Sequence record: NC_019715.1
Length of the DNA stretch: 39,578 bases
Source: Escherichia phage mEp234
Strand: one strand, 5' to 3'
Within the stretch, counting starts at the first letter, position 1, and the number at the start of each line of letters is the position of its first letter. Under the pieces are notes generated by a model that did no database searches, was not told the origin of the DNA, and was given only the letters and a program-made list of their open reading frames with translations. The position numbers and the translations under genes were made by a program. This document shows, piece after piece, positions 6,281 to 33,006 of the stretch.

Positions 6281-6624
6281 ATGAAGATAATATCTACGCC
6301 TTGCTTTCTCCCCTGGCAGAGGGGCGGGTATACCCCTATGTTGCGCCATTAGGTAGTGACGGGAAACCGTCTGTCTCTCCACCCTGGATTATCTTTTCCA
6401 TCGTCGATGATGTTTCCGCTGACGTACTGTGTGGCCAGGCAGAGAGCAGGGTTTCCGTTCAGGTCGATGTGTATGCCACAACGATCACTGAATCACGATC
6501 CCTGAGAGATTTGGCGCTCGCTTCGCTTAAGCAGTTAAACCCTACAGAGGTGGTAAAAATCCCCGGGTACGAGCCAGATTATCGGCTCTACCGTGCCACC
6601 CTGGATTTTAAAGTTACCCCCTGA
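6277..6624 (+). CDS. tail completion / tail terminator protein (gpU-position)
   Basis: 115 aa, last gene before major tail protein. Confidence 0.5.
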   Translation: MNEDNIYALLSPLAEGRVYPYVAPLGSDGKPSVSPPWIIFSIVDDVSADVLCGQAESRVSVQVDVYATTITESRSLRDLALASLKQLNPTEVVKIPGYEPDYRLYRATLDFKVTP

Positions 6625-6642
6625 CGATTAATTCACCCAACG

Positions 6643-6670
6643 AACCCGCCTGATGGCGGGTTTTCTTTTT
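6643..6670 (+). terminator. stem-loop plus U-tract upstream of major tail gene
   Basis: CCCGCC-TGAT-GGCGGG followed by TTTTCTTTTT; SD GGAG and ATG 6684 follow. Confidence 0.45.
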
Positions 6671-6683
6671 CCAGGAGACAGCT

Positions 6684-7388
6684 ATGTCTGCACTTTATGA
6701 AAAATCGCAGCTGACGAAGATCCTTATTTCCTCCCTGCCAGCCACCAAAGAAACGATGGATTCCGCCACCTTTCTCGATCTGAGTTGCACCATCAAAGAA
6801 ATTCAGTTCACTGGTGGCCAGAAGCAGGATATCGACGTAACAACACTTTGCTCTACCGAGCAGGAGAACATCAACGGCCTGCCTTCTCCGTCAGAAATCT
6901 CTCTGTCCGGCAACTTCTACAATAATCCAGCGCAGGACGCCTTGCGTGATGCGTATGACAACGACACCACTTACGGCTTCCAGATCATCTTCCCGTCAGG
7001 TAATGGTTTTAAGTTCCTGGCCGAAGTTCGCCAGCATACCTGGTCATCTGGTACCAATGGTGTTGTGGCAGCTACATTCTCACTGCGCCTTAAAGGCAAG
7101 CCTGTCCCGATTGACTCTGTACTTAAACTGACCACTGATCTTCCTTCCTCACTGTCTGTAGCGGTGGGGGCTGCGATCAGCATGGCTGTAGTAGCTGCCG
7201 GTGGTAAGCCTCCGTATGCCTACACCTGGAAGAAGGCAGGTAGCACCGTCAGCGGGCAGACATCCGATACCTTTAATAAAGCCACCGCAGTTTCAGGTGA
7301 TGCAGGTGATTACACCTGTGTGGTTACGGATTCTTCTTCTCCGGTCAAAACGGTTACCTCAGCTGCCTGCACCCTTACTATCAGTTAA
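6684..7388 (+). CDS. major tail protein with C-terminal Ig-like domain
   Basis: 234 aa; C-terminal ~80 aa (KPPYAYTWKKAGSTVSG...GDYTCVVTD) looks like a Big_2/Ig-like domain as on lambda gpV; precedes G/T chaperone genes. Confidence 0.8.
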   Translation: MSALYEKSQLTKILISSLPATKETMDSATFLDLSCTIKEIQFTGGQKQDIDVTTLCSTEQENINGLPSPSEISLSGNFYNNPAQDALRDAYDNDTTYGFQIIFPSGNGFKFLAEVRQHTWSSGTNGVVAATFSLRLKGKPVPIDSVLKLTTDLPSSLSVAVGAAISMAVVAAGGKPPYAYTWKKAGSTVSGQTSDTFNKATAVSGDAGDYTCVVTDSSSPVKTVTSAACTLTIS

Positions 7389-7422
7389 TGGAGATGCCGG
7401 GTTGTCCCGGCATGGATAAGCG

Positions 7423-7809
7423 ATGTCGCAAACTTTAAAACAATTAGCCATGGCGAAAATGGCTGGCTTTCGCCATAAGACGGTCGTTGTCCCTGAGTGG
7501 GAAGGTGTCAAAGTGGTTCTCCGTGAGCCGTCAGGTGAAGCCTGGCTGCGCTGGCAGGAGGTGGTGAAAGGGGGGGCCGACGATGAAAATGTGTCGGTAT
7601 CGGAAAAGGCGCACCGTAATCTTTGCGCTGACGTGGTGCTCTTCATTGACGTTCTGTGTGACACCGATAAGCAACCGGTATTCAGCGTAGACGAAGAAGA
7701 GCAGGTGCGTGAAATTTACGGGCCAGTGCACTCACGTCTGCTCAAACAGGCGCTTGACCTGATCAACAATGCGGACGAAGCGCGGGAAAAGTCTCAACCC
7801 CCGGCGTAA
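7423..7809 (+). CDS. tail assembly chaperone G
   Basis: 128 aa directly upstream of an overlapping out-of-frame ORF (T) and the tape measure gene; classic G/GT arrangement. Confidence 0.75.
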   Translation: MSQTLKQLAMAKMAGFRHKTVVVPEWEGVKVVLREPSGEAWLRWQEVVKGGADDENVSVSEKAHRNLCADVVLFIDVLCDTDKQPVFSVDEEEQVREIYGPVHSRLLKQALDLINNADEAREKSQPPA

Positions 7810-8096
7810 AGTTTCTGATGTCGCTTGCGCTCCGGATGGGGCGCACGCTCTCAGAGCTTCGGCAGAATATGACGGCAAGCGAGCTTCTGATGTGGATTGA
7901 GTACGACAGGCAAAGCCCGGTTGGCGATATTCGCGGTGATATCCATGCAGCGCAGATTGTCTCTGCCATCTACGGCTCGCAGGGGGCAAAAGTACCGCTG
8001 GACGATGCGATCCTGCGCTGGGGTGGTGATGAGCAATCAGAACCGAAGGACCCGTTTGCAGGGCTTGAGGCGGCACTTACAGCTGCGACACAATAA
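7758..8096 (+). CDS. tail assembly protein T segment (expressed as G-T fusion by programmed -1 frameshift)
   Basis: The -1 frame relative to G is open from 7758 to 8096; GGGAAAAG at 7784-7791 resembles the lambda G/T slippery site GGGAAAG. Confidence 0.6.
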   Translation, partial: PDQQCGRSAGKVSTPGVKFLMSLALRMGRTLSELRQNMTASELLMWIEYDRQSPVGDIRGDIHAAQIVSAIYGSQGAKVPLDDAILRWGGDEQSEPKDPFAGLEAALTAATQ

Positions 8097-8153
8097 TTGC
8101 TTCACATGCCTTCAATGTAGCGATACGCTCTTTCCTTAAGTAAAGGAGGCGTT

Positions 8154-8342
8154 ATGGAACCACTGGTAGTAGTGTTTGGAATATTCGGCTGGCTGATAAA
8201 TCTAATTGTGATTTTTTATTTATTACGGTTTAGCACAAGGGCAAATGAACAAGTTGAAGCCCTTAAAGAGATAAATAAAAAGCAAGATGCGCAAATAGAT
8301 TTATTAATACAAGTCGCTCACCAAAGAAAAGACAGTTTATAA
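8154..8342 (+). CDS. small single-pass membrane protein, HK97 gp15/YebO-like (candidate superinfection exclusion)
   Basis: 62 aa; strong SD AAGGAGG; N-terminal TM helix then RFSTRANEQVEALKEI; AT-rich; located between T and tape measure, the position of HK97 gp15. Confidence 0.55.
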   Translation: MEPLVVVFGIFGWLINLIVIFYLLRFSTRANEQVEALKEINKKQDAQIDLLIQVAHQRKDSL

Positions 8343-8348
8343 CTCACG

Positions 8349-8372
8349 ACCCGCTATCAAGCGGGTTTTTTT
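8349..8372 (+). terminator. stem-loop plus U-tract after gp15-like gene
   Basis: ACCCGCT-ATCA-AGCGGGT then TTTTTTT, immediately followed by ATGGGTGAAAATATG. Confidence 0.5.
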
Positions 8373-8384
8373 ATGGGTGAAAAT

Positions 8385-11300
8385 ATGGCTACGTTGCGCG
8401 AACTGATCATCAAAATATCTGCAAACTCTCAGTCATTCCAGTCTGAAATTTCTCGTGCTTCAAGAATGGGGAATGACTATTACCGGGTAATGCAGACTGG
8501 AGGACGCCAATCGGCCGCAGCTTCGCGTGAAACTCAGCGTGCCTTGGCTGAGGTAACTAGTCAAATAAACACCGCGAAGGCCTCAGCACTGGGAATGGCT
8601 GGTGCATTTGCTGGAGCATTTGCGACTGGTCATCTTATATCGCTGGCCGATGAATGGAGCTCTATTAATGCCAGGCTAAAGCAGGCTTCCCAGTCGTCAG
8701 ATGATTTCACGGAGTCCCAGCGGGCGCTGATGGATATTAGCCAGCGAACCGGAACCGCCTTCTCTGATAATGCGAGTCTTTTTGCGCGTTCAGCCGCTTC
8801 TATGCGTGAATATGGCTACAGTTCAGAAGAGGTTCTGAAGGTAACCGAGGCTATATCAACAGGGCTTAAGCTGTCAGGCGCAAGCGCGTCTGAAGCGAGT
8901 TCGGTAATCACGCAGTTCAGCCAGGCTCTGGCGCAGGGTGTTCTTCGAGGCGAGGAATTTAACTCCGTCAACGAAAACGGTGATCGAGTTATCCGTGCTC
9001 TTGCCGCAGGGATGGGTGTAGCTCGTAAAGATCTGAAGGCAATGGCCGATCAGGGGATGCTAACCGCAGATAAAGTTGTCCCGGCCCTGATAAGTCAACT
9101 TGGCACTATGCGTGGTGAATTTGAGGCAATGCCGCAGACCGTTTCTGCTGCCACGACGAAAGTCGAAAATGCTTTCATGGCATGGGTAGGTGGCGCTAAT
9201 GAAGCCACTGGTGCGACAAGTACTCTTGTTGCCGTATTGAATACGGTTTCTGACAATATAGACACTGTGGCTACGGCTGCCGGAGCTTTGGCTGCGATAG
9301 GTGGAGCTCGCTATCTTGGAGGGATGTTTGGCGATCTTGGGAACCAGACGGCGCAATTAATAGATGCCAGAAAGAACGAAATTGCGCTCGCAGCTGCAAG
9401 GGCTGAATCTGCTACCCAATCACAACGCAAGGCCGCCGCCGATGCTATTGCTGCTGAGCGAGCTTACCAGCTTGCTCAGTCAGAACTTGTGCTGGCAAAG
9501 AATACTAATGCTGAGGCTACTGCCACTCAAAATGCCATATCCAAGCGCCGGGCAATGATTACAGCAAATGCGGCACTGGTACAGTCAAACAGAGCCGTTG
9601 CAGCCTCTCAGCAGGCACTTAACTCTGCAACATCAGTGCTGGGGCTTGTAAAAACTGGCGCTACGGGTCTTTTGTCGTTAGTTGGTGGTTTGCCAGGAAT
9701 TTTAATGTTGGGTGCTGGGGCGTGGTACACGATGTATCAACGCCAAGAACAAGCCAGGGAATCTGCAATCAAATATGCGGACACAATAGAGCAGGTACGA
9801 GATAATCTGAAATCAATGTCTCAGACGCAGATATCCGCCAACCTTGGACAGGCGAATATTTCACTGGATGCTCAGAATAGTGCGATTGAACAGCAGAAGC
9901 AGAAAGTTGCTGAATTATCCAATCAACTTTATAACGCAAAATTAGCAGCCAATTCTGCTTCAGAGGGGACATGGCTGTATAACGATGCGGTTGAGAAAGC
10001 CGCAGACTTTGCTTCAGAACTTGCGGTTGAAGAAGGCCGACTTGAGCAAATGCTCAATAAAAGAAAGCAAACACAACAGTTAATAAACGACATAACTGAT
10101 CAGGCTATAAATAAAACAGTAGAAATGGCTGGCGCCGTAAGTTCTCTTACAGAGATGTATGACCGGCTGAACAAGGTTTCCAGACAGTCTACAGCAGTGT
10201 CCCCACCAAAATATGCAGGACCTGTACTTCCTGCGCTTGATAATAAGCAACAACAAGCTATTGAGAAAGCACAGCGACAGCTTGAGTTATCTGGCCTTCA
10301 GGGTTTGGATAAGGCTCGAAAGCAGGCAGAATTCGATGCATCTGATCTGAACCTTCCAGCTGGTTGGCGTGAGAAATATGTCAGCATGGAAGTTGAGTCT
10401 GCCAGGCAATTACAAGCAATTCGTAACTCAAGCCGCCATAAGGGTGGAAAATCCGAGGCGGAAAAAACAGCTGATACCTATGACAAGCTGATCAAGCAGC
10501 AAAAAGAGCAGATCGCTCTGCAAGGGCAGAATACCGAGCTGGCAAAGGTTAAATATCAGGTAAGCCAGGGTGAGCTTTCTACGCTAAGTCAGGCCCAGAA
10601 AGCCGAAGTTATGCGTAATGCTGCTCTCATCGATCAGGTTAAATTGCGTGAGCAACTGCGAAATTACGAAGCCAACCTTGCTGACAGTAACGCCAGCGCC
10701 CGCGCAGCCAATGAAGCGCAACTGCTGGGATACGGGCAGGGAACCAGGTTCCGTGAAAGACTTCAGGAGCAGTTCAATCTGCGTAAGGAGTTTGAGCAGA
10801 AGAATACCGATCTTCTCCGCCAGCGTCAGGCTGGTGAAATCGACGAGACGTTCTATCAGCAGGGGCTGGCACTTAATAAGCGCTACCTCGAAGAGCGCCT
10901 GCGCGACCAGGAGGGATATTACGCAGCTTCTGATGCGCAGCGTGACGACTGGATGACGGGACTGTCTGAGGGTTATGCGAACTGGGTGGACGAAGCGACA
11001 GATTACTCCTCCATGGCCGCTGACGGCATGAAGCAGGCCATGGGTGGCGCGGTCACCACGATCACCGACATGCTCAATGGCAACGTTGACAGCTGGAAGG
11101 ACTGGGGCGTGAGCGTACTGAAGATCATCCAGAACGTTCTGGTGAACATGGCTGTTGCTAACGGCGTCAGTTCAATTGGTTCTCTCTTCAGCTTTGGCGC
11201 ATCTTCCGCCGCTGCCGCCAGTAGCGGTACTGCAATTCAGAACGCTGGCGCGAACTTCACCTTTAACGCGAAGGGTAATGTTTACGACTCTCCGTCCCTG

Positions 11301-11651
11301 AGCGCATACAGCAATGGCGTGTTTCAGACCCCTCAGCTTTTTGCTTTTGCCAAAGGAGCGGGTGTGTTTGCAGAGGCTGGACCTGAAGCCATTATGCCGC
11401 TTACCCGTGCTGCTGATGGTTCGCTTGGCGTTCGGGCTGTTGGCACTGGTGGTGGTCAGGCTGTATCTTCGGCTCCACAGGTTTACATCACCATCGATGG
11501 CAACGGAAATACTTCCACGCAGACTTCACCCGGCCTTGAGCAATTTGGTGCTGATGTCGGTAAATATATTGATCAGCGATATAAGCAGAACATCATGCGA
11601 GATATTCGCCCTGGCGGTGACATCTGGAACGCAATGAAAGGAACCCGATAA
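8385..11651 (+). CDS. tail tape measure protein
   Basis: About 1090 aa, alanine/glutamine-rich with long coiled-coil stretches; follows G/T. Track ORF begins at ATG 8373, which abuts the U-tract; ATG 8385 is the more likely start. Confidence 0.9.
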   Translation: MATLRELIIKISANSQSFQSEISRASRMGNDYYRVMQTGGRQSAAASRETQRALAEVTSQINTAKASALGMAGAFAGAFATGHLISLADEWSSINARLKQASQSSDDFTESQRALMDISQRTGTAFSDNASLFARSAASMREYGYSSEEVLKVTEAISTGLKLSGASASEASSVITQFSQALAQGVLRGEEFNSVNENGDRVIRALAAGMGVARKDLKAMADQGMLTADKVVPALISQLGTMRGEFEAMPQTVSAATTKVENAFMAWVGGANEATGATSTLVAVLNTVSDNIDTVATAAGALAAIGGARYLGGMFGDLGNQTAQLIDARKNEIALAAARAESATQSQRKAAADAIAAERAYQLAQSELVLAKNTNAEATATQNAISKRRAMITANAALVQSNRAVAASQQALNSATSVLGLVKTGATGLLSLVGGLPGILMLGAGAWYTMYQRQEQARESAIKYADTIEQVRDNLKSMSQTQISANLGQANISLDAQNSAIEQQKQKVAELSNQLYNAKLAANSASEGTWLYNDAVEKAADFASELAVEEGRLEQMLNKRKQTQQLINDITDQAINKTVEMAGAVSSLTEMYDRLNKVSRQSTAVSPPKYAGPVLPALDNKQQQAIEKAQRQLELSGLQGLDKARKQAEFDASDLNLPAGWREKYVSMEVESARQLQAIRNSSRHKGGKSEAEKTADTYDKLIKQQKEQIALQGQNTELAKVKYQVSQGELSTLSQAQKAEVMRNAALIDQVKLREQLRNYEANLADSNASARAANEAQLLGYGQGTRFRERLQEQFNLRKEFEQKNTDLLRQRQAGEIDETFYQQGLALNKRYLEERLRDQEGYYAASDAQRDDWMTGLSEGYANWVDEATDYSSMAADGMKQAMGGAVTTITDMLNGNVDSWKDWGVSVLKIIQNVLVNMAVANGVSSIGSLFSFGASSAAAASSGTAIQNAGANFTFNAKGNVYDSPSLSAYSNGVFQTPQLFAFAKGAGVFAEAGPEAIMPLTRAADGSLGVRAVGTGGGQAVSSAPQVYITIDGNGNTSTQTSPGLEQFGADVGKYIDQRYKQNIMRDIRPGGDIWNAMKGTR

Positions 11652-13506: not shown

Positions 13507-13731
13507 ATGTATACAGTTGGGTTTGGTTGGATCTTCGTCGGTATTTTTATTGGGTTAATTCTCTGGTTTTTCATCAACCGCGCCAGCGTCAGAGCGAACA
13601 GGCAGGTTGAATTACTTGAGTCTATCGACCAGAAATTATCAAAAATAGTAGATCCAAACTTCGAGGCAAATAACAAAGACCAGTCGAAAGAAAACTACCT
13701 TGAAGAAGCAAGGAAAAAAGCTGGGCTTTGA
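13507..13731 (+). CDS. small single-pass membrane protein, paralogue of the gp15/YebO-like gene
   Basis: 74 aa; SD AAGGAG; TM helix then INRASVRANRQVELLESI, the same architecture as the 8154-8342 protein; AT-rich; own hairpin/U-tract follows. Confidence 0.5.
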   Translation: MYTVGFGWIFVGIFIGLILWFFINRASVRANRQVELLESIDQKLSKIVDPNFEANNKDQSKENYLEEARKKAGL

Positions 13732-18201: not shown

Positions 18202-18839
18202 TGGCCGAATTTGGCGCGATGATATTAATGGACAACGGGAACCCATTTGTAACGCCCCAGTCAACGCCTTTTTGTCTTTACGGCAAGTACACTTTCAACT
18301 CCTCTGCTAATGGCAGTTCGCAGCAGGTTGCTCAGAATATTGCATTAAATGCTGACTACCCTGTGATGGTATTTATCAGGACCACAAATACCGCCCAGCC
18401 CACGCCAGTAATATCTTACCGGAACGGCGGAAATATATATGTCGCGGGGGTTAATCCCTATAACCAGAGCTTCACGTTAACCGCATATATTTTTGCCATA
18501 TTTCCCCAGACGTTACCGAAATGGGGGATGGCCATCTGGGATTCGAGCGGGAAGCTGGTACTCACTAATGAGTCCCGCGTGCTGTCAGACTTGCAGACAA
18601 TCGGAACGCCTGGAGCAAACGGCGGGATTAACATTGACCAGACGCTTGATGGTTCATGGGCAGTGGCTCCATCAAGGCTGGGGCAAGTGAACAGAAACGA
18701 CGCTTACTCATCTTGTAGGTATTCAGGCACAAGTACAAGAATAAACGCCGGTACAGCCGCAAATACACCTGGCGGTGCTGGAGGGGTGATAAATAATGGA
18801 ATTATCCTGACAGCAATTAAAACAGACGCCTATGATTGA
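18201..18839 (+). CDS. hypothetical protein (possible tail-tip accessory)
   Basis: 212 aa, start overlaps the upstream stop (TAATG); contains AIWDSSGK, related to the N-terminus of the preceding protein; Gly/Asn/Thr-rich. Confidence 0.5.
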   Translation: MAEFGAMILMDNGNPFVTPQSTPFCLYGKYTFNSSANGSSQQVAQNIALNADYPVMVFIRTTNTAQPTPVISYRNGGNIYVAGVNPYNQSFTLTAYIFAIFPQTLPKWGMAIWDSSGKLVLTNESRVLSDLQTIGTPGANGGINIDQTLDGSWAVAPSRLGQVNRNDAYSSCRYSGTSTRINAGTAANTPGGAGGVINNGIILTAIKTDAYD

Positions 18840-18946
18840 TTGTTTTGAGCGATCAATAACAAATAATTTATCTATCTAATCAATTATATCCATCGATTAT
18901 GTATTGGTATCTTCGAAGCTACTGAATACCTCTGGATACTATCAAA

Positions 18947-19180
18947 ATGAAAAGGCTAATTATCTGCATAGCGGGCGCTTTAATGCTGTCTGGTTGCGCT
19001 GGTGTACTTGAGAAACAGAAACCGATTTGCAGCGGCACGGCATATATGGGTGGCCATGAGAATACCGTTATGATTTACGCCGTTCGAAAGCAAAACAACC
19101 AGACGCAATACCGGGCCGGATATCCCTTTAACTGGCGCTGGGTAAGTGCGAACACATTCACAAGCACGACATGTAAATAA
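18947..19180 (+). CDS. small lipoprotein (Cor-like superinfection-exclusion candidate)
   Basis: 77 aa; signal peptide with lipobox LSGC; AT-rich upstream region; sits between J and the side tail fibre, where lambdoid phages carry cor/lom-type genes. Confidence 0.5.
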   Translation: MKRLIICIAGALMLSGCAGVLEKQKPICSGTAYMGGHENTVMIYAVRKQNNQTQYRAGYPFNWRWVSANTFTSTTCK

Positions 19181-21020: not shown

Positions 21021-21316
21021 TGTGTACCAAATTGCGTACCAAACTAAAATCACAAATCATGAAACCCTTGTTCATGGCGGTTCTCAGGGGTATTGCGCGT
21101 AATCGTGAAAGAGGAAGGTAGGTTGTTTATCTGTGTCTGTCATTGTCTAGCATTGTCCACTGTAGTTAATTAACTGTCTGTTATAACTCGAAAAACAACC
21201 ATTTTTTCACCTGAGTATGTCTACTAACGTCAAATATAGTTGTTTACTGTGCGCTGTTGTCCATGTGATATTGTGTACCAGATGTGTACCAAACCATTAT
21301 TTCTGAGCGTACCAAA
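21021..21316. other. candidate attP region with integrase arm-type direct repeats
   Basis: Five same-orientation copies of GTACCA(A/G)A at 21024-21031, 21036-21043, 21275-21282, 21286-21293 and 21309-21316, flanking a ~230-bp AT-rich interval immediately upstream of int. Confidence 0.45.
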
Positions 21317-21324
21317 TATTATTT

Positions 21325-22503
21325 ATGGCTATAAGCGACACAAAACTGCGTACTATTTATGGTAAACCATATTCGGGCCCACAAGAAGTGGCTGATGCCG
21401 ATGGCCTCAGCGTACGAATTTCACCGAAGGGGGTCATCCAGTTCCAGTACCGCTATCGCTGGCATGGCAAGCCTAATCGACTTGGGCTTGGTCGATACCC
21501 ATCCCTGTCTTTGAAGGATGCCAGACAGATCACTGCTGACTTGCGAAAGCTCTATTTCTCAGGAACGGATCCACGCACTTATTTTGAAGAGAAGGTGGAG
21601 AACTCCATGACGGTCGCCCAGTGTCTCGACTACTGGTTCGACAATTACGTCTCTACAACTCTCAGAGAAAAGACCCAGGCACTTTACCGATCAACGGTTA
21701 TGAAGCGCATGCATGACGCCTTCCCTAATCGACCGGCATCTTCTATCACGGTTAAGCAATGGGTTGACCTGCTTACCGAAGAAGAAAAAGATAATCCACG
21801 CCGAGCAAGGCAGGTGCTAAGTCAACTAAGATCAGCAATTAGTTGGTGCATGCGGCGTCAGTTGATAGATAGTTGCGCAATTATGAGCATCCAGCCAAGG
21901 GACTTCGGCTCCCGCGCTGAGGTAGGGGATCGGGTACTGTCGTATCACGAACTGGCTAAGATTTGGCTTGCTATTGAAAGAAGCCGTGCGTCTACGTCAA
22001 ATAAGCTCCTTCATCAGATGCTTATGCTGTGGGGGGCGAGGCTCTCAGAGCTTAGGCTGGCAACAAAGACAGAATTTGACCTGCTGGACAACGTATGGAC
22101 CGTACCGAAAGAGCATAGCAAGATGGGTAATGTTATCCGCCGTCCAATCTTCGAACAAATTAAGCCTTTTCTCGAAAAGGCCATGACAACGTACAATGAT
22201 GTTCTTTTCCCTGGAGAAGACATAAACAAACCGATCAGCATCGCTGCAGCCAACCGATTCGTAAACAGAATAAGGGGAGGGATGGATCTAGGTTACTGGC
22301 GAACACATGATTTCAGAAGAACGCTTGTTACACGTCTGTCCGAGATGAATGTCGAGCCTCATGTTACTGAGCGAATGCTCGGTCATGAACTTGGCGGGAT
22401 AATGTCCGTATACAATAAACACGACTGGATAGAGGCTCAGCGCAAAGCGTATGAGCTTCACGCTGATAAATTGTTCTGGCACATCAGGAGCATTTCTGAT
22501 TAA
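21325..22503 (+). CDS. int: tyrosine integrase (P4-like, N-terminal DUF4102 arm-binding domain)
   Basis: 392 aa; N-terminal LSVRISPKGVIQFQYRYRWHGK; catalytic-region motifs (HDFRRT, MLGHE, SVYNKHDW). Confidence 0.9.
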   Translation: MAISDTKLRTIYGKPYSGPQEVADADGLSVRISPKGVIQFQYRYRWHGKPNRLGLGRYPSLSLKDARQITADLRKLYFSGTDPRTYFEEKVENSMTVAQCLDYWFDNYVSTTLREKTQALYRSTVMKRMHDAFPNRPASSITVKQWVDLLTEEEKDNPRRARQVLSQLRSAISWCMRRQLIDSCAIMSIQPRDFGSRAEVGDRVLSYHELAKIWLAIERSRASTSNKLLHQMLMLWGARLSELRLATKTEFDLLDNVWTVPKEHSKMGNVIRRPIFEQIKPFLEKAMTTYNDVLFPGEDINKPISIAAANRFVNRIRGGMDLGYWRTHDFRRTLVTRLSEMNVEPHVTERMLGHELGGIMSVYNKHDWIEAQRKAYELHADKLFWHIRSISD

Positions 22504-22675
22504 CGCCACCGTTAAGAATCCACCCTTCAACAGCTTCACGAAGGTATGATTTGGGGTGGGTTCTGACTGGCTTCGGAAATCCGTGCCGTTTGGTATAGTT
22601 CCAGATTGTCTGACGTGATGAAACACCGAGCTTGTTCATCACTTCTTTCTCAGGAATCAGGCTGGTATCGGTCAT
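22484..22675 (-). CDS. AlpA/Xis-family DNA-binding protein (putative excisionase)
   Basis: 63 aa; SD GGAG; winged-HTH signature KEVMNKLGVSSRQTIWNYTKRHGFPKPV; convergent with int and overlapping its 3' end by 20 nt. Confidence 0.65.
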   Translation of the reverse strand: MTDTSLIPEKEVMNKLGVSSRQTIWNYTKRHGFPKPVRTHPKSYLREAVEGWILNGGVNQKCS

Positions 22676-22754
22676 CTTAATTCTCCAGGCAAAAATAAAC
22701 CGCCATATAGCGGCTCTATCAGATATGTACAGGCCTCATCGAGTGTGAGGCGGG

Positions 22755-23099
22755 TTAGTCCTTGCGTAGCTCACTGATTCTTCTGTAAGTCTCTGGTGCT
22801 TTGTTCCCGTACGTCTTCATTTCAGACTTCAACAGAGCAACGAGGGGATCCCATTCGTTGAGGATGCCTTTGAATGCCGGAACGCGCTTTGCAACCTTGT
22901 CGAATGAATCTCTGATTTCTGGAATCTGCTCGACAAGTGCAACGCATCGTCTGAAATCGGCTGCGTCATGAGGAGCGCCGAAGTGATGACCATAGATATT
23001 CTTTTTCAGGCCACATGCGATTGAGGCAAGAGTTGCGCTACTGATGCCGACATCGCCAGTCGATAGCCATTTCAAAACCTTCATAGCCAAATCTGACAT
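22755..23099 (-). CDS. hypothetical protein (early-left operon)
   Basis: 114 aa, ATG with SD GGAG; no recognisable motif. Confidence 0.5.
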   Translation of the reverse strand: MSDLAMKVLKWLSTGDVGISSATLASIACGLKKNIYGHHFGAPHDAADFRRCVALVEQIPEIRDSFDKVAKRVPAFKGILNEWDPLVALLKSEMKTYGNKAPETYRRISELRKD

Positions 23100-23110
23100 T
23101 TCTTGTCTCC

Positions 23111-23136
23111 ATAAAACAAAACTCGCCGTAGCGAGT
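23111..23136 (-). terminator. stem-loop plus U-tract on minus strand
   Basis: ACTCGC-CGTA-GCGAGT followed (on minus strand) by TTTTGTTTT. Confidence 0.4.
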
Positions 23137-23191
23137 TCAGATAAAAGAAATCCCCGCGAGTGCGAGGATTGTTATGTAATATTGGGTTTAA

Positions 23192-23386
23192 TCATCTATA
23201 TGTTTTGTACAGAGAGGGCAAGTATCGTTTCCACCGTACTCGAACGGCGCTGTAGTTTGTCCATTCTTTCTTTTTTGTCTGGCGATCGTAATACTGAACG
23301 CCAGCACGGATGTTGAATCCGATATTTTCCCCGGCCTGAAACTCTCTTGCGGGCTTGTTTAGTCTTACAGTAATCGAATGTGCCAT
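23192..23386 (-). CDS. hypothetical protein translationally coupled to erf
   Basis: 64 aa from ATG 23384-23386, which overlaps the erf stop (TAATG) with SD GGAG; the track's longer 94-aa version overlaps erf and was not used. Sits where P22 carries abc genes, but the sequence is not recognised. Confidence 0.4.
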   Translation of the reverse strand: MAHSITVRLNKPAREFQAGENIGFNIRAGVQYYDRQTKKKEWTNYSAVRVRWKRYLPSLYKTYR

Positions 23387-23991
23387 TAAGCAGCCGCTCC
23401 TTCTAATTCGTCTCGTCTGATGTTGTAAACGTCCTGCGCTTTGTGCTGCTCCGGTGTTCCTTCGAGCATCTTCCACGCTTTGGCGAACGCCTGTTTAAGC
23501 TCTTCCACGGTGTTTTTTTGCATTGCTGCGTCAGTGAATGCTTTTAGAACCTGTTCAGGTGTAGGTGATGGTTTTGATTGCTTTGCTGCTGCGTTCTGCT
23601 GATGTTTATGTTCGTCGGTATCTGCATCTTTCGCATCATCAATGCCGAACAAACCATTAAGGCAATACTTGCGCGCATAAGAGCTTGTAGCTCCAGTAAC
23701 TTGTGCAGAATCCATTCCTTTCTTGCTTTCTTCCTCTCGTGCAAGAGCAGTTGCCGTATGACTGTTTTCGCCATCGGTAATAGTTGCCGTGGCTTTCACG
23801 TAATACCGATCACCAATCAACACAACTTCATCGCTGATTGATAAAAACAGGCCATTCAGTAACGGCTTAACGCCTTCAAGAATGTCTTCGCAGCTTCTGT
23901 ATTTATATTTACCGAATGAGTTGTACTGATTCTTTGGCGCGTTCAGATTCTCCTGAATAGCTGCCAGTCTTGCGTAAAATTCTTTGCTCAT
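23386..23991 (-). CDS. erf: ERF-family single-strand annealing protein
   Basis: 201 aa from ATG 23989-23991 (MSKEFYARLAAIQENLNAPKNQYNSFGKYKYRSCEDILEGVKPLL), recalled as P22 Erf-like; the track ORF starts at an upstream TTG. Confidence 0.75.
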   Translation of the reverse strand: MSKEFYARLAAIQENLNAPKNQYNSFGKYKYRSCEDILEGVKPLLNGLFLSISDEVVLIGDRYYVKATATITDGENSHTATALAREEESKKGMDSAQVTGATSSYARKYCLNGLFGIDDAKDADTDEHKHQQNAAAKQSKPSPTPEQVLKAFTDAAMQKNTVEELKQAFAKAWKMLEGTPEQHKAQDVYNIRRDELEGAAA

Positions 23992-24001
23992 ATGATTGTT
24001 C

Positions 24002-24172
24002 TCAGAATGGACACGGCCCAAGGAAATAACGCTGATTTAATACTTCAGTCTTTGCCGCATTTAAAAATACGCGAACACCTTCACGATCTCCCTTCTGGCG
24101 ATACATTAACGCCTGCTGCGTGTACATGCGTCTCTGTAACTTGCTCTCCTTCACTGTGGTTGCAAGTGACAT
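24002..24172 (-). CDS. small protein (arf-position, unknown)
   Basis: 56 aa (MSLATTVKESKLQRRMYTQQ...), SD GGAGATATTC before the ATG; ends 10 nt before the erf start. Below the track's 60-aa cutoff; translated by hand. Confidence 0.35.
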   Translation of the reverse strand: MSLATTVKESKLQRRMYTQQALMYRQKGDREGVRVFLNAAKTEVLNQRYFLGPCPF

Positions 24173-24247
24173 GAATATCTCCTTCGTTACCGATTAATTC
24201 TTTCATCTGACGAATGAATTCTTCGTCTGACCAGTTATCTGTAAAAC

Positions 24248-24400
24248 TCATTTCCTGCGATACAACGGAAGGTTGATAGCTGATTTCATCGCTTTATTTG
24301 CTTCAAACCACATTTTGGAATCACCAATAAATCTGGCTATTACTGCTTTGTTTTGTGCAGCACGAAGCATCTGATGATTTATGGCTATTTCATTGCGCAT
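24248..24400 (-). CDS. kil: Kil-like small protein (candidate host division inhibitor)
   Basis: 50 aa; IARFIGDSKMWFEA resembles the FIGD core recalled for lambda/P22 Kil; SD GAGGTC; overlaps cIII end. Confidence 0.4.
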   Translation of the reverse strand: MRNEIAINHQMLRAAQNKAVIARFIGDSKMWFEANKAMKSAINLPLYRRK

Positions 24401-24516
24401 AATAAGACCTCAACTCTTTTCCATCCGTCACGTAATTTACGGGTGATTCGTTCAAGTAAAGATTCATTTAGTTGGAAGGCACCCATGCGAGCGCCTCCCG
24501 CGATTGCGTAAATCAT
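24385..24516 (-). CDS. cIII: CIII-like protein (FtsH inhibitor)
   Basis: 43 aa; NESLLERITRKLRDGWKR matches the lambda CIII central helix as recalled; SD AGGAA. Confidence 0.6.
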   Translation of the reverse strand: MIYAIAGGARMGAFQLNESLLERITRKLRDGWKRVEVLLCAMK

Positions 24517-24540
24517 GGGTGGTTCCTTATGTTGGTTTTA

Positions 24541-25509
24541 TTAGTAGGTTATTTTTGTTGCGAATACTTCGCCTTTTACGATGGCTGTTATGATATTTTT
24601 AGCAACATCTTCTGATGCACCAACCTTGATAAGGTCAGCAAGTATTTTGTTATTTACTTCTTTCCGGTGAGCTTTATCCTTTGCTCTACGCTCTTCTTCG
24701 TCCTTGATTCTTTTTTCTTCTGCTATTCTGGCTTGCTCTTTTGCTTCAGCCTCGCGCCGGATTCGTTCTGCCTCCTCCTGTGCTTTTCGGCGTTCTGCTT
24801 CAATTGCCACCTGCTTTTCTCTTTCAGCTCGTTCTGCTGCCTCTTTTGCTTCGCGCTGTGCTCGTTGCTCGGCTTCAATGCGTTCACGCTCTGCACGTTC
24901 CGCTGCGGCCTTAGCTTCTGCTTCTCGCCTTGCTGCTGCTTCAATTTCGGCTTTTGCCTTTGCTTCGGCTTCAGCTCTGGCTTTCTCTTCAGCTTCTCTT
25001 TTTAAGCGTTCTTCATGCTCTCGCTTTTCCTGCTCCGCTTTGAGTCTTGCCTCTTCTCTTTGGCGGTCAAATTCGCGATCCATCAAAATCGCTATTTCAT
25101 GGTCAGACTCAATTTGCTTTGCGAGAGCTTCAGCTGCTGCCTTAGCTTCTTCTTCGGCTTTAATCCGTGCCTGCTCCTCCTCATAATCAGTAAGAGGCTG
25201 ACGCGCCTTGGCTTTCAGCTCATCAAGTCGATCACGCACTGTCTTGCGGTTGGCATCAATTAGCTTTGGAATTTCCTTCAGTTCAGCAACAAGGTCTTTT
25301 CCAAGACCATCGAGATATGTTTTCGTCTGCGCAACTTTATACGCCAGAGAAGCGATCTCCTTTCTGCCCTTTGCCGTTGTGATATCAGGCACAAAGGACA
25401 TAACTTCACGTTCAACCTTTTGGAGAATTTCTTCAATCTGGTCGGCAGACTGAAATACAGTCATTGCATTTGCTTTTTCAATAACAACTAAATCTGTTAC
25501 TTCACTCAT
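24541..25509 (-). CDS. DUF1351/Gp157-like protein with extended E/A/K/R-rich coiled-coil tract
   Basis: 322 aa from ATG 25507-25509 (strong SD GGAGGATAT); N-terminal ~110 aa globular, then ~180 aa of low-complexity EAKAAAE/RREAEAK repeats; family name is from memory. Confidence 0.5.
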   Translation of the reverse strand: MSEVTDLVVIEKANAMTVFQSADQIEEILQKVEREVMSFVPDITTAKGRKEIASLAYKVAQTKTYLDGLGKDLVAELKEIPKLIDANRKTVRDRLDELKAKARQPLTDYEEEQARIKAEEEAKAAAEALAKQIESDHEIAILMDREFDRQREEARLKAEQEKREHEERLKREAEEKARAEAEAKAKAEIEAAARREAEAKAAAERAERERIEAEQRAQREAKEAAERAEREKQVAIEAERRKAQEEAERIRREAEAKEQARIAEEKRIKDEEERRAKDKAHRKEVNNKILADLIKVGASEDVAKNIITAIVKGEVFATKITY

Positions 25510-25521
25510 ATATCCTCCGTC

Positions 25522-25548
25522 AAAAAAATTGCCCTCACACTGGAGGGC
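25522..25548 (-). terminator. stem-loop plus U-tract immediately upstream of DUF1351-like gene
   Basis: GCCCTC-cagtgt-GAGGGC then TTTTTTT on the minus strand, 13 nt before the SD. Confidence 0.45.
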
Positions 25549-25665
25549 AAAGAAGATTTCCAATAATCAGAACAAGTCGGCTCCTGTTTAGTTACGAGCG
25601 ACATTGCTCCGTGTATTCACTCGTTGGAATGAATACACAGTGCAGTGTTTATTCTGTTATTTATG

Positions 25666-25694
25666 CCAAAAATAAAGGCCGCCATCAGGCAGCC
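25666..25694 (-). terminator. stem-loop plus U-tract at 3' end of the 83-aa gene
   Basis: GGCTGCC-TGAT-GGCGGCC (one G:U) then TTTATTTTT on the minus strand; the gene's stop codon lies in the loop. Confidence 0.45.
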
Positions 25695-25936
25695 TTGTTG
25701 TAAATGTTGCAGGTATCAAGTAAGTAATTAGATGGAGCGCCATAAATTATGAATTCATCGTTTGTCGGGTCCATCTCCATCTCTTGGCCTATTGCCATTC
25801 TTGCGTCAGTGTCATCAGCGGCGAAGCATAAAACAGCCCACGCACCCATTGTTTTAAAAAGAACTGCAATTGGCTGTGGTTTTACTGAATTTGCGTTAGC
25901 GCGAAAATCACAAATCGCACTTTCATGAAATTCCAT
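25685..25936 (-). CDS. hypothetical protein (moron-like, between N and DUF1351 gene)
   Basis: 83 aa, SD GAGGTG; bracketed by its own terminator. Confidence 0.45.
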   Translation of the reverse strand: MEFHESAICDFRANANSVKPQPIAVLFKTMGAWAVLCFAADDTDARMAIGQEMEMDPTNDEFIIYGAPSNYLLDTCNIYNKAA

Positions 25937-25994
25937 ATATCACCTCAAATAAGTGGTTTGCTGCCTAATTTTATTTTCTGGCGACCAACACAAG

Positions 25995-26378
25995 TCACCT
26001 TGCTGTCAGTTGTTTTGATTTCCTGTAGCCTGCCGCGTAAAGAGCTACATTTGGAAGACATACACCAGTTTCTGGTTGCCTATGCCCAAACTCATTCGCG
26101 TACACAATGGCCGCTCTCTCCAGATTGCGTCTGTATTCTTTCTGTTGCCAGATCACGTCCTGTGCCATGAACTTAATTGGCTTAGCGTCTTCTATGCGCT
26201 CAGGCGTTTCGTGAGTACCTTTAGCCTGAATCTGCGCTCTGCTTAGAGTAGGGCGGTGTAATACTTCTGAACTTATTGCTTCTTCGCGGGCCAGTACGCC
26301 GTTAGCTAATGCCTTTGCCTTTAAACGCTCACGACGACGAGAACGTGAATTGCCTTTGAACTGAGTTCTGCGTGTCAT
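25995..26378 (-). CDS. N-like transcription antiterminator (P22 gene 24 type)
   Basis: 127 aa; arginine-rich motif near N-terminus (GNSRSRRRERLKAK); strong SD AGGAGGT; first gene downstream of PL with a boxB hairpin in its leader. Confidence 0.7.
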   Translation of the reverse strand: MTRRTQFKGNSRSRRRERLKAKALANGVLAREEAISSEVLHRPTLSRAQIQAKGTHETPERIEDAKPIKFMAQDVIWQQKEYRRNLERAAIVYANEFGHRQPETGVCLPNVALYAAGYRKSKQLTAR

Positions 26379-26543
26379 ATAGACCTCCTGATGAACTTTG
26401 GTGGTGTGGTAGGTGGGAGACCCATTTCGACCTGTTTCGGCCTACTTCAATTCGGCAATAGTCCCGCAGGCCTCGCCGCTTTACGTGCGACATATTCCCG
26501 TCCATGAACCCTTCACCACACCCCAAAGTTCACTTTGGTTATT

Positions 26544-26558
26544 GCGCTTTGTCAGCGC
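26544..26558 (-). promoter_or_regulatory. nutL boxB hairpin (P22 type)
   Basis: RNA GCGCU-GACAA-AGCGC in the PL leader; the GACAA loop is the P22-type boxB as recalled. Confidence 0.6.
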
Positions 26559-26622
26559 CGTAGATTCATCTCTGAATCGTTGTATATTCACCGCCCTGGT
26601 GAGTAGTGCGTCCTGCTGATGT

Positions 26623-26689
26623 GTTTAGTATCACCGCCAGTGGTATTTATGTCAACACCGCCAGAGATAATTTATCACCGCAGATGGTT
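26623..26689 (-). promoter_or_regulatory. PL promoter with operators OL1-OL3
   Basis: Minus strand -35 TTGACA (26650-26655), 17-bp spacer, -10 GATACT (26627-26632); 17-bp operators TATCACCGCCAGTGGTA (26629-26645), 26653-26669 and TATCACCGCAGATGGTT (26673-26689), matching lambda OL as recalled. Confidence 0.8.
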
Positions 26690-26840
26690 ATCTGTATGTT
26701 TTTTATATAGATTTATTTTTTTGCAGGGGTGTGTGGCTTGGGAGGTGATCGAGAGATCTGAATTGCGATGTTTAGTGAGTTGTATCTATTAATTTTCAAA
26801 TAAATACAATTGGTTATGTGTTTTGGGGCGAACGTGAGGC

Positions 26841-26867
26841 AAAGAAAACCCGGCGCGGTGGCCGGGT
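26841..26867 (-). terminator. Rho-independent terminator ending the cI-side accessory operon
   Basis: ACCCGGC-caccgc-GCCGGGT then TTTTCTTT on the minus strand, 7 nt after the stop of the 141-aa gene. Confidence 0.6.
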
Positions 26868-26873
26868 TGGAGA

Positions 26874-27299
26874 TTATTTTCTAGATGATGTTGGGGACCA
26901 AGGTAACGTTATAGTATCTAACACTGTGTTTTTGAACATATTTTCAAAAACTGTTTTTGTACATACATATACATAATTTTCAAAAAACCAAGCATTTTCA
27001 TTATAAAAATCCTCAGTTACTTCTTCATCGAGGTCACACTCAAATGTTAGTGTCAAGGTAGCCTCTGCCTTGAACAATACATCCTCACCATCATCAAAAT
27101 CTTTTTTATCGCGAGGGAAACCAGTTATCGATGGCTTAACTTCAATAAAGAGCCAATTTCCATCTTCATCTTTTTGAGGAACAACGTGATGCTCAGAAAA
27201 TTTTAAGCTATATTTTCCGCCTTCAGAATTATCACTGTCGTCGATAAAAAGGGAAGAACCCTCGAGATCAAATCCCTTAAAGCGAATTTTATCAAGCAT
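26874..27299 (-). CDS. acidic protein of unknown function, translationally coupled to hicB
   Basis: 141 aa from ATG 27297-27299, overlapping the hicB stop (TGATG); AT-rich coding sequence; no recognisable motif; the track ORF extends to an upstream TTG. Confidence 0.5.
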   Translation of the reverse strand: MLDKIRFKGFDLEGSSLFIDDSDNSEGGKYSLKFSEHHVVPQKDEDGNWLFIEVKPSITGFPRDKKDFDDGEDVLFKAEATLTLTFECDLDEEVTEDFYNENAWFFENYVYVCTKTVFENMFKNTVLDTITLPWSPTSSRK

Positions 27300-27772
27300 C
27301 AATGTGGCACTCCGTTGTCTACTGAAACTTCCCAATAGGTCTCTTCTGTACGTCTACGGGATGAGAAGAAAGTAACTTCTCTAACATCCCTCGGTTTTTC
27401 AAAGTGGTAGTGAACCTCTTTTTTCCCATTAACTGACTCACTGACAGCCTGTTTTACATAATCGTTTAAAGTCATATTCTTAGCTTTAGCAGCTAAATAT
27501 GCTTTTTTATGCAGGGATTCACCTATCCGGATGTTAAACGAACCACTCATTGTCTTATCTGGAGATTTTCCTATCTCTTCACAAGTGGAGAGGTAATCGT
27601 CCACGGCCTCCTCAAAGGCTGCACGGAGTTCTGCAACCGTTGCACCCTCATAAGTGACGAGATCATTTATACATTCGAGTTTTCCATGCATCACCCCATC
27701 TTCAAATGAAATGCTGGAGCTACCATAGTAACCTTTGTATTTCATCAAGTTATTCATGATCATCAATCTCAT
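27299..27772 (-). CDS. hicB: HicB-family antitoxin with C-terminal extension
   Basis: N-terminal MKYKGYYGS...DLVTYEGATVAEL...VDDYL (HicB fold), RHH-like IRIGESLHKKAYLAAKAKNMTLNDYV, then ~45 extra residues; four in-frame ATGs between 27745 and 27772. Confidence 0.7.
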   Translation of the reverse strand: MRLMIMNNLMKYKGYYGSSSISFEDGVMHGKLECINDLVTYEGATVAELRAAFEEAVDDYLSTCEEIGKSPDKTMSGSFNIRIGESLHKKAYLAAKAKNMTLNDYVKQAVSESVNGKKEVHYHFEKPRDVREVTFFSSRRRTEETYWEVSVDNGVPH

Positions 27773-28004
27773 CTAACAGCTGTTTAACTTCTTCCAAGAC
27801 GTACCTTTTGAGGGTGTTTTCAGGATGAGGCTCATGAAAAATGACCAATCTATCAACACGTTGGTTGTAAAATTTACGGCCAGAACCTCGTTTAGCATTC
27901 AAAAGCTTGAAGCCATACTGGTTCATGAGAGTAACGAACTCATCCCAAGTAAAATTTTTGGGTAAGCCGTCTAACTTTGACTTTAGCTTTTCCTTTCTTC
28001 CCAC
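27750..28004 (-). CDS. hicA: HicA/YcfA-family toxin-like protein
   Basis: 84 aa (GTG start); ...FKLLNAKRGSGRKFYNQRVDRLVIFHEPHPENTLKRYVLEEVKQL matches the HicA fold pattern as recalled; directly upstream of hicB. Confidence 0.65.
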   Translation of the reverse strand: MGRKEKLKSKLDGLPKNFTWDEFVTLMNQYGFKLLNAKRGSGRKFYNQRVDRLVIFHEPHPENTLKRYVLEEVKQLLDEIDDHE

Positions 28005-28164
28005 GAAGGATACATCCTCTGTTAAAGGTAGTGCAACTGAAATCTAGTTGCAAGCTATGCTATCTATAGACAAAATGTTTCATTGTTATATCAGAAGATA
28101 CCCGATCTGTTTCACCTTCAACTACTATAATTTGTTATAAGCTATCAACCGGTGGAACTGCGAA

Positions 28165-28263
28165 TTAGCCGCTGGGTGTTGCGTATCCATCGATGATAAA
28201 CCATGCCATAAACCCCATAGCTACGATGAACACCAAGATCGGAAACACTATACCAATTCTCAT
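28165..28263 (-). CDS. 32-aa hydrophobic peptide ORF (candidate small membrane protein)
   Basis: MRIGIVFPILVFIVAMGFMAWFIIDGYATPSG, ATG 28261-28263 with GGGAT upstream; lies in the 363-bp AT-rich spacer between cI and hicA; translated by hand. Confidence 0.3.
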   Translation of the reverse strand: MRIGIVFPILVFIVAMGFMAWFIIDGYATPSG

Positions 28264-28367
28264 GATTTTATCCCTGTCTACCCATGCTTCCTGGGCACCA
28301 GCGGCTCGTTACTCGGCATCACCCTTAATCCGCCGCCCCATGTGTTTGTTGTGATCCGTTGCTGGCC

Positions 28368-29084
<717 letters not shown>

Positions 29085-29091
29085 TTAAATC

Positions 29092-29157
29092 TATCACCGC
29101 AAGGGATAAATATCTAACACCGTGCGTGTTGACTATTTTACCTCTAGCGGTGATAAT
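29092..29157. promoter_or_regulatory. OR3-OR2-OR1 with PRM (leftward) and PR (rightward)
   Basis: OR3 TATCACCGCAAGGGATA (29092-29108), OR2 TAACACCGTGCGTGTTG (29115-29131), OR1 TACCTCTAGCGGTGATA (29139-29155); PR -35 TTGACT 29129-29134 and -10 GATAAT 29152-29157. Confidence 0.85.
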
Positions 29158-29172
29158 GGTTGCATGTACTAA

Positions 29173-29382
<210 letters not shown>

Positions 29383-29389
29383 GTAACAC

Positions 29390-29435
29390 CGCTCTTTTCA
29401 CAATGGACATTCGTCCTACGTCGCTGACAAAGCGA
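29390..29435 (+). promoter_or_regulatory. nutR (boxA plus boxB)
   Basis: boxA-like CGCTCTTTTCA (29390-29400) and boxB hairpin TCGCT-GACAA-AGCGA (29421-29435) just downstream of cro; the loop matches nutL. Confidence 0.6.
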
Positions 29436-29520
29436 GTCCCAATATATCTGACCAACTAAGGCCATATGCGTTTCCACGCATACCTTTCAACTAACTATTC
29501 ACTATTGGAAATCTTAAGAA

Positions 29521-29817
29521 ATGGAAAGAACAAGTTACAGCAAACTATCACAGCGTGACGTTGATCGCGCAGAAACAGATTTACTCATCAACCTGTCAAC
29601 GCTTACCCAGCGCGGTCTGGCAAAGATGATTGGCTGTCATGAATCGAAGATAAGCAGAACGGACTGGAGATTTATTGCTTCGGTCTTGTGTGCTTTTGGA
29701 ATGGCATCAGACATCAGTCCGATTAGCAGGGCTTTTAAGTATGCGCTTGATGAAATCACAAAGAAAAAATCCCCGGCCGCCACCGAGGATTTTAAGCAAA
29801 TTGATATGCAATTCTGA
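29521..29817 (+). CDS. cII: CII-like transcriptional activator
   Basis: 98 aa; HTH region and C-terminus ...KKKSPAATEDFKQIDMQF parallel lambda CII (...KKRPAATERSEQIQMEF) as recalled. Confidence 0.7.
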   Translation: MERTSYSKLSQRDVDRAETDLLINLSTLTQRGLAKMIGCHESKISRTDWRFIASVLCAFGMASDISPISRAFKYALDEITKKKSPAATEDFKQIDMQF

Positions 29818-29849
29818 GGGAATTACTGGATCAATCCACAGGAGTAATT

Positions 29850-30011
29850 ATGACAAAACGTCGTAAGAAATACCAGGAAAAAGAAGAGATTCGACACCCT
29901 GATTCACCTGAGGGATTAGTGGTAGCCGCAGCAAATAACAGGGCGTTCGCAGAGCGCCTTGTTGGTGTTTACAGACTAGCCAAAGCAGGAGTGAAGCATG
30001 GGCGTCGTTAA
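29850..30011 (+). CDS. small basic protein ORF between cII and the replication gene
   Basis: 53 aa (MTKRRKKYQEKEEIRHPDSPEG...), SD GGAG 6 nt upstream; overlaps the start of the next gene by 14 nt; translated by hand. Confidence 0.3.
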   Translation: MTKRRKKYQEKEEIRHPDSPEGLVVAAANNRAFAERLVGVYRLAKAGVKHGRR

Positions 30012-32314: not shown

Positions 32315-32394
32315 TGACCATCTACATCACTGAGCTAATAACAGGCCTGCTGGTAATCGCAGGCCTTTTTATTTGGGGGAGAGGGAAGTCATGA
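32314..32394 (+). CDS. 26-aa hydrophobic peptide ORF (uncertain)
   Basis: [26 protein letters not shown]; ATG overlaps the helicase stop (TGATG) with a strong SD AAGGAGG 6 nt upstream; ends overlapping the ninB start. Confidence 0.2.
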   Translation: MTIYITELITGLLVIAGLFIWGRGKS

Positions 32395-32831
32395 AAAAAC
32401 TAACCTTTGAAATTCGATCTCCGGCACATCAGCAAAACGCTATTCACGCGGTACAGCAAATTCTTCCAGACCCAACCAAACCAATCGTAGTAACCATTCA
32501 GGAACGCAACCGCAGCTTAGACCAAAACAGGAAGCTATGGGCCTGCTTAGGTGACGTCTCTCGTCAGGTTGAATGGCATGGTCGCTGGCTGGATGCAGAA
32601 AGCTGGAAGTGTGTTTTTACAGCAGCATTAAAGCAGCAGGACGTTGTTCCTAACCTTGCCGGGAATGGCTTTGTGGTAATAGGCCAGTCAACCAGCAGGA
32701 TGCGTGTAAGCGAATTTGCGGAGTTATTAGAGCTTATACAGGCATTCGGTACAGAGCGTGGCGTTAAGTGGTCAGACGAAGCGCGACTGGCTCTGGAGTG
32801 GAAAGCGAGATGGGGAGACAAGGCTGCATGA
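32391..32831 (+). CDS. ninB: NinB recombination protein
   Basis: 146 aa [56 protein letters not shown]..., matching lambda NinB as recalled. Confidence 0.9.
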
Positions 32832-33004
32832 GACGACAGCGACGAAGTATCACCGACATCATCTGTGAAAACTGCAAATACCTTCCAACGAAACGCTCCA
32901 GAAATAAACGCAAGCCAATCCCAAAAGAATCTGACGTAAAAACCTTCAACTACACGGCTCACCTGTGGGATATCCGGTGGCTAAGACATCGTGCGAGGAA
33001 ATGA
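32828..33004 (+). CDS. ninD: NinD
   Basis: 58 aa [22 protein letters not shown]..., matching lambda NinD as recalled; start overlaps the ninB stop (ATGA). Confidence 0.85.
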
Positions 33005-33006
33005 CA

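Follow-up and report, generated by a model that had tools for sequence, protein, structure and literature searches.

The locus between T and the tape measure gene

Between tail gene T and the tail tape measure protein gene (H) of Escherichia phage mEp234 lies a short open reading frame, gene 15, whose product is here called gp15. The window analysed is the whole 39,578-nucleotide stretch of record NC_019715.1, one strand read 5' to 3', and all coordinates refer to it unless another locus is named. Positions 1-21099 and 21098-39578 are each 100% identical to the mEp234 record PV340539.1. The features of the locus are:

7423-7809, plus strand: tail assembly chaperone gene G (Pfam Phage_TAC_1, E = 1.6e-60)
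7818-8096, plus strand: tail assembly chaperone gene T (Pfam Phage_tail_T, E = 1.5e-20)
8101-8129, plus strand: weak candidate sigma-70 promoter, TTCACA (8101-8106), 17-nt spacer, TACGCT (8124-8129), 8 of 12 consensus positions, from a looser scan
8143-8149, plus strand: Shine-Dalgarno sequence AAGGAGG (7 bases), 4 nt upstream of the gene 15 ATG, read from the sequence
8154-8342 including the stop codon, plus strand: gene 15, ATG start, 62 aa, YebO family, predicted here to encode a single-pass inner-membrane superinfection-exclusion protein
8348-8374, plus strand: intrinsic-terminator-like hairpin, GACCCGCT-ATCA-AGCGGGTT, followed by T7, from a terminator scan
8385-11651, plus strand: tail tape measure protein gene, 1088 aa, 1082 of 1089 residues identical to HK97 gp16

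The start of the tape measure gene is likelier to be 8385 (MATLRELI) than the first ATG of the program-made ORF, 8373 (MGENMATL...), because both the HK97 annotation and sequence conservation begin at the former. The mEp234 record PV340539.1 uses the earlier start, 8373. In the HK97 annotation the T product is made by a -1 frameshift fusion, gp13/gp14.

Gene 15 and its product

Gene 15 encodes MEPLVVVFGIFGWLINLIVIFYLLRFSTRANEQVEALKEINKKQDAQIDLLIQVAHQRKDSL. The protein begins with a hydrophobic segment (residues 3-24, about 4-24) in which the 19-residue Kyte-Doolittle mean is 2.5; the mean lies below 0 from residue 20 onward, and the remainder of the protein is polar. The ORF and the hydropathy scan thus agree with the first-pass annotation, which had described a 62-residue protein with one transmembrane helix. 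Directly C-terminal of this helix is the motif RFSTRANEQVEALKEI (residues 25-40). The AlphaFold2 model of gp15 is a single continuous helix spanning residues 2-61 (mean pLDDT 86). Arginines 25 and 29, read by the positive-inside rule, indicate that the topology is probably N-out/C-in, with the helix of residues 25-61 in the cytoplasm.

The base composition of the gene sets it apart from its surroundings. Its G+C content is 33.3%, compared with 57.7% for T, 50.9% for the tape measure gene and 49.6% for the whole window, and just 0.14% of 189-nt windows in the structural region (1-21000) equal it in AT-richness. The AT-rich composition proposed at first pass is therefore real by measurement against both flanking genes (50.9-57.7%), and the strong Shine-Dalgarno sequence it reported is the AAGGAGG found 4 nt before the ATG. 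The GGAGG core of this sequence is kept at the same position in the Citrobacter, Klebsiella and JGI prophage homologues.

Several other searches of the region gave no match. The ORF list holds no ORF of at least 30 aa on the opposite strand across gene 15, Rfam at gathering thresholds finds no family anywhere in the window, and no PADLOC model matches gp15. Two protein-family candidates were rejected: NCBIfam TIGR04561, at 15.6 bits, falls below its cutoff of 30, and the Pfam TUNAR match (E = 0.077) is an artefact of the hydrophobic segment.

A sister copy of HK97 gene 15

The protein is almost identical to HK97 Gp15 (AAF31105.1). Alignment of the two, which takes up the HK97 gp15-like assignment made at first pass, gives 61 identical residues of 62 (98.4%). 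The sole difference, at residue 14 within the transmembrane helix, is a leucine here and a methionine in HK97 (L14M). The Leu14 form is the commoner: the protein is identical in HK75, HK106, HK446, HK544, HK633, mEpX1 and mEp234. A profile match to phrog_5031 (E = 4.2e-29) covers residues 1-61.

The likeness extends to the surrounding DNA. Over 1.3 kb (7400-8700) HK106 and mEp234 match the sequence at 100%, whereas identity to HK97, HK75, HK446, HK633 and mEpX1 is 99.6-99.8%. HK97 carries the gene in the same slot, between gp14 (T) and gp16 (tape measure), with the same Shine-Dalgarno sequence, hairpin and flanking genes, so that the position claimed at first pass is confirmed by synteny on both sides. 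Only two differences separate the HK97 DNA over the roughly 320 bp aligned, namely the substitution behind L14M and one extra T in the T-run (T7 in mEp234, T8 in HK97).

By alignment and synteny, mEp234 is a sister phage carrying HK97 gene 15 itself, a gene that is already known and annotated in the public record. In PV340539.1 it is labelled 'Gp15 exclusion protein', and the HK97 record labels its copy '15, Gp15, moron product', with a 'terminator, putative' after the gene. Publications from 2000 to 2015 described gene 15, where it lies, its descent from YebO and its exclusion phenotype, and the term 'moron' was first applied to this gene. What is new here is minor: synteny across genera, an invariant block in the protein, a weak promoter conserved in position, a hairpin in relatives that lack the moron, and alternative cargos in the same slot.

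Homologues of gp15 in other genera

Genomes of Citrobacter, Klebsiella michiganensis and Raoultella, as well as metagenome contigs, encode close homologues of gp15 (58-62 aa, 73-86% identity). Every short homologue retrieved (Citrobacter, Klebsiella michiganensis, Raoultella and two metagenome contigs) has a Phage_tail_T gene on one side and, on the other, a tape measure gene whose product carries PF06120 (Phage_HK97_TLTM). Across these short homologues the block INKKQDAQIDLLIQ.AH, at residues 40-56, is invariant, and the transmembrane helix varies conservatively. The invariant C-terminal block is probably the functional surface.

The detectable family is small, because just 16 clusters reached E <= 1e-3 when 1.84 billion cluster representatives were searched exhaustively with phmmer. 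A word-indexed protein search with gp15 gave 32 matches, all from the close phage-type subfamily, and the moron DNA is present in six of 5426 complete E. coli genomes. RefSeq names the prophage copies of gp15 'YebO family protein'.

A truncated and diverged member of the YebO family

That gp15 is YebO-like, as the first-pass annotation had it, is upheld both by profile and by pairwise alignment. Pfam PF13974 (YebO-like) scores 38.7 bits on gp15 against a gathering score of 27, aligning residues 14-59 with profile positions 8-53 of 80. For the pairwise comparison we used authentic YebO, translated from b1825 of E. coli K-12 (NC_000913.3), and BLASTP aligned 48 residues at 38% identity (pairwise E = 1e-6). 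The match spans the end of the transmembrane helix, the R-x-S-x-R-x-N-E-Q motif and part of the helix that follows. Both proteins share the same order of parts: a single N-terminal transmembrane helix, then this motif, then a polar helix.

The Pfam score above threshold, the shared helix and motif, and the RefSeq name on prophage copies would all fit a reading in which gp15 does in the lysogen the work of chromosomal YebO, itself a small membrane protein with a housekeeping or stress-related role, and phage exclusion is incidental or absent. However, the two proteins differ in ways that make this reading very improbable. YebO is chromosomal, has 95 residues with an acidic C-terminal tail, and its gene in K-12 adjoins mgrB; gp15 is phage-borne, has 62 residues without the acidic tail, and adjoins phage tail genes, always including an HK97-type tape measure gene. 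The full-length chromosomal architecture (~95 aa, acidic tail, mgrB neighbour) is thus not that of gp15. Identity reaches just 38% and is confined to the part near the transmembrane helix, and YebO lacks the block that is invariant in the phage subfamily, INKKQDAQIDLLIQ.AH. Moreover, neither deletion nor overexpression of E. coli yebO affects HK97 propagation, whereas gp15 excludes HK97 (PMC3594210).

We therefore assign gp15, from its 62-residue length, its coverage of profile positions 8-53 of 80 only and its phage-borne context, as a truncated, diverged member of the YebO family and not a YebO orthologue. This assignment fits the published description, in which the N terminus of gp15 strongly resembles YebO and the C terminus has diverged (PMC3594210). 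The protein would have descended from the chromosomal enterobacterial YebO family, its C-terminal half having diverged since. Our search of the published literature on YebO found no newer functional data bearing on gp15.

An insertion between T and the tape measure gene

A sensitive DNA search retrieved many phages in which T and H, at 69-72% identity to the mEp234 genes, lie about 240 bp closer together. In the two examined, vB_EcoS-689R5 and JLK-2012, T is followed by a hairpin with a T-run and then by the tape measure start, with no ORF between. By comparison with these relatives, gene 15 is an insertion between T and the tape measure gene.

A moron in the sense of Juhala et al. (2000) is said to be extra DNA between genes that are adjacent in relatives, differing from them in base composition and carrying its own promoter and its own terminator. 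Gene 15 fits two parts of this description directly, as extra DNA between T and H and as DNA of differing composition. The first-pass placement of a moron between T and the tape measure gene accordingly stands: vB_EcoS-689R5 and JLK-2012 are without the gene, and its composition is foreign.

The slot is filled differently in other phages. Klebsiella phages have a longer YebO-like protein of 77 residues there, 47% identical to gp15; in Kp4873-4 (OK490438.1; locus L010, 659-892) it is encoded between T and the tape measure gene and scores 60 bits with PF13974. Its length falls between those of gp15 (62 aa) and YebO (95 aa), and its C-terminal tail, ...DYLEEARKKAGLI, is common to other longer family members. 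In Salmonella phage SW-37 (CP051275.1; locus L009, 349-762) the slot holds an unrelated 137-residue ORF with a lipobox (LLAGC), for which a DUF2846 match is sub-threshold. Because the slot can hold a lipoprotein-like ORF unrelated to gp15, the comparison suggests that the T-H junction is a recurrent cargo site.

A candidate promoter conserved in position

A sigma-70 consensus scan of 6500-9000 finds no promoter at 9 of 12 positions or better. The looser scan that yielded TTCACA-N17-TACGCT has a high chance rate: 14% of 90-nt windows reach 8 of 12, so the match alone is not significant and is merely suggestive. However, its geometry is conserved. Seven of seven short-gp15 loci have a -35/-10-like pair, spaced by 17 nt, whose end lies 24-26 nt upstream of the ATG, although the spacer sequence varies. 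In the Citrobacter and JGI loci the pair reads TTCACA-N17-TACGAT, and in those of Klebsiella and Raoultella it reads GTGACA-N17-TAGGAT; the counterpart pairs of the six homologous loci score 9 of 12 at the conserved position. Because of this conserved geometry across loci, TTCACA-N17-TACGCT is a reasonable candidate for the promoter that the literature ascribes to the moron. [quoted passage not shown]

A terminator-like hairpin that may predate the insertion

The hairpin downstream of gene 15 (8348-8367) has an 8-bp stem with five G-C pairs and a 4-nt loop, and folds at -14.9 kcal/mol (z = -3.3 against shuffles). Its pairing is kept through compensatory changes in Raoultella and Klebsiella prophages, with CCCTGC/GCAGGG in Raoultella. 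An equivalent hairpin and T-run also precede the tape measure start in vB_EcoS-689R5 and JLK-2012, which lack gene 15 (at about 585-612 in locus L008 and about 588-615 in locus L011). Since these relatives have it too, the terminator may belong to the T-H junction and predate the insertion; it may be an older feature of the junction, not one brought in with gene 15. The first-pass annotation had given gene 15 its own stem-loop and U-tract. A hairpin with T7 does directly follow the gene, but the word 'own' is best softened, given the equivalent in relatives without the gene.

These signals also bear on whether gene 15 is a prophage-expressed moron at all. It could instead be an accessory of the lytic cycle, acting in tail assembly or injection (for example as a membrane helper for handling of the tape measure protein) and expressed from the late operon. 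The gene does lie inside the tail operon on the same strand, its candidate promoter is weak, and a hairpin that also occurs in relatives lacking the gene is no proof of an independent transcription unit. However, close relatives with the same T and H genes have no gene 15, so the gene is dispensable for tail assembly; its composition is foreign (33% G+C); SW-37 has an unrelated lipoprotein-like ORF in the same slot, as for a cargo site; and both prophage expression and an exclusion phenotype have been published (PMC3594210). A lytic accessory role is extremely unlikely on this evidence, and we continue with gene 15 as a prophage-expressed exclusion gene.

A further proposal goes beyond the published picture, and we put it forward tentatively and with some doubt: that the hairpin is an ancestral regulatory feature of the tail module, and that the linkage of gp15 to the tape measure gene, together with the invariant block, reflects co-adaptation and is more than background. 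If this were true, the hairpin could control how much transcript reaches the tape measure gene, or could mark a place where cargo is preferentially inserted. The slot just upstream of it would then have received one cargo or another: gene 15, the longer YebO-like genes of Klebsiella or the lipoprotein-like ORF of SW-37. The linkage of short gp15 proteins to HK97-type tape measure genes over four genera, and the INKKQDAQIDLLIQ.AH block, would in turn reflect co-adaptation between an exclusion protein and its neighbouring target.

Exclusion function and proposed mechanism

The function of gp15 is known from HK97. HK97 gp15, made from the prophage, is inserted in the inner membrane and stops HK97 and HK75 from injecting their genomes; it leaves the outer-membrane receptor untouched and acts independently of repressor immunity (PMC3594210). 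The block of genome injection is described likewise in a later paper (PMC10883804), and the statement made at first pass, that HK97 gene 15 is reported to block phage DNA entry, agrees with both (PMC3594210, PMC10883804). Exclusion is tail-dependent, since it is relieved when tail regions are exchanged for those of HK022 (PMC3594210). Entry of the HK97 genome needs inner-membrane PtsG and periplasmic FkpA (PMC5099701). On the step affected, a 2026 review has gp15 act on the TMP-PtsG step (PMC12939059); a 2024 paper calls the mechanism unknown (PMC10883804).

The tail of mEp234 is of the same kind as that of HK97. Its tail tube protein is identical to that of HK97 at 233 of 234 residues. With tail tube and tape measure proteins both 99% identical to those of HK97, mEp234 has the gp15-sensitive tail type, and mEp234 lysogens should exclude mEp234 and its kin. 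Published work with hybrid phages reportedly maps gp15 sensitivity to the tape measure region. The exclusion phenotype of mEp234 gp15, which carries the Leu14 allele, is carried over from HK97 by analogy, at 98-100% identity. The protein of HK75 is identical to that of mEp234, and HK75 is itself reported to be gp15-sensitive.

We hold with high confidence that gene 15 is an AT-rich, horizontally acquired moron of an HK97-type temperate phage, whose product, expressed from the prophage, would block DNA entry at the inner membrane. The following sequence of events is proposed. In the lysogen, gene 15 would be transcribed on its own, most likely from the weak sigma-70 promoter in the 57-nt spacer after T, and translated from the strong Shine-Dalgarno sequence. 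The 62-residue product would be inserted into the inner membrane via residues ~4-24, its conserved C-terminal helix (residues 25-61) probably facing the cytoplasm. There it would prevent the DNA of superinfecting phages with HK97-type tails from crossing the inner membrane, with adsorption to the outer-membrane receptor unaffected. The target is probably formation of the DNA conduit, the step in which the tape measure protein, once ejected, engages the inner membrane and PtsG. During lytic growth, we infer, the gene 15 cassette would merely be read through within the late tail operon.

The value of the system is as a handle on the way in which an inner-membrane helix of 62 residues keeps the tape measure protein of a siphophage from opening a DNA channel. 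Mutagenesis could be guided by the invariant C-terminal block, by the constant linkage to HK97-type tape measure genes and by the alternative cargos in the slot.

Other accessory regions and exclusion systems

Elsewhere in the window, a small ORF at about 13507-13731 lies between tail genes K and I; PV340539.1 labels it 'hypothetical protein, gp20', and it may be another insertion in the tail operon. Three regions of the early/accessory half (21091-21390, 24161-24730 and 26621-28170) have a G+C content of 38% or less and are candidate horizontally acquired accessory genes. In the tail region, PV340539.1 labels a Cor superinfection-exclusion gene at about 18983-19180, between the J-region genes and the side tail fibre gene; it overlaps a low-G+C island at 18711-19030. 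By this label, mEp234 would have a second exclusion gene in its tail region, acting at the outer membrane.

The mode of action of gp15 has parallels in several systems. SieA of P22, Ltp of Streptococcus phage TP-J34 and Sie2009 of Lactococcus phage Tuc2009 are, like gp15, expressed from a prophage and membrane-associated, and block DNA entry after adsorption. Escape from Ltp of TP-J34, like escape from gp15, maps to the tape measure protein (PMC10883804). However, SieA, Ltp and Sie2009 have no sequence relationship to gp15; Ltp belongs to a Gram-positive host and is a lipoprotein, and SieA is larger and acts on short-tailed phages. Cor of HK022, N15 and phi80 resembles gp15 in its genetic setting, being a small prophage-expressed exclusion gene within the tail-gene region of lambdoid phages (PMC3594210). 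The two act at different membranes: Cor inactivates FhuA at the outer membrane and so blocks adsorption, whereas gp15 leaves the receptors functional and acts at the inner membrane.
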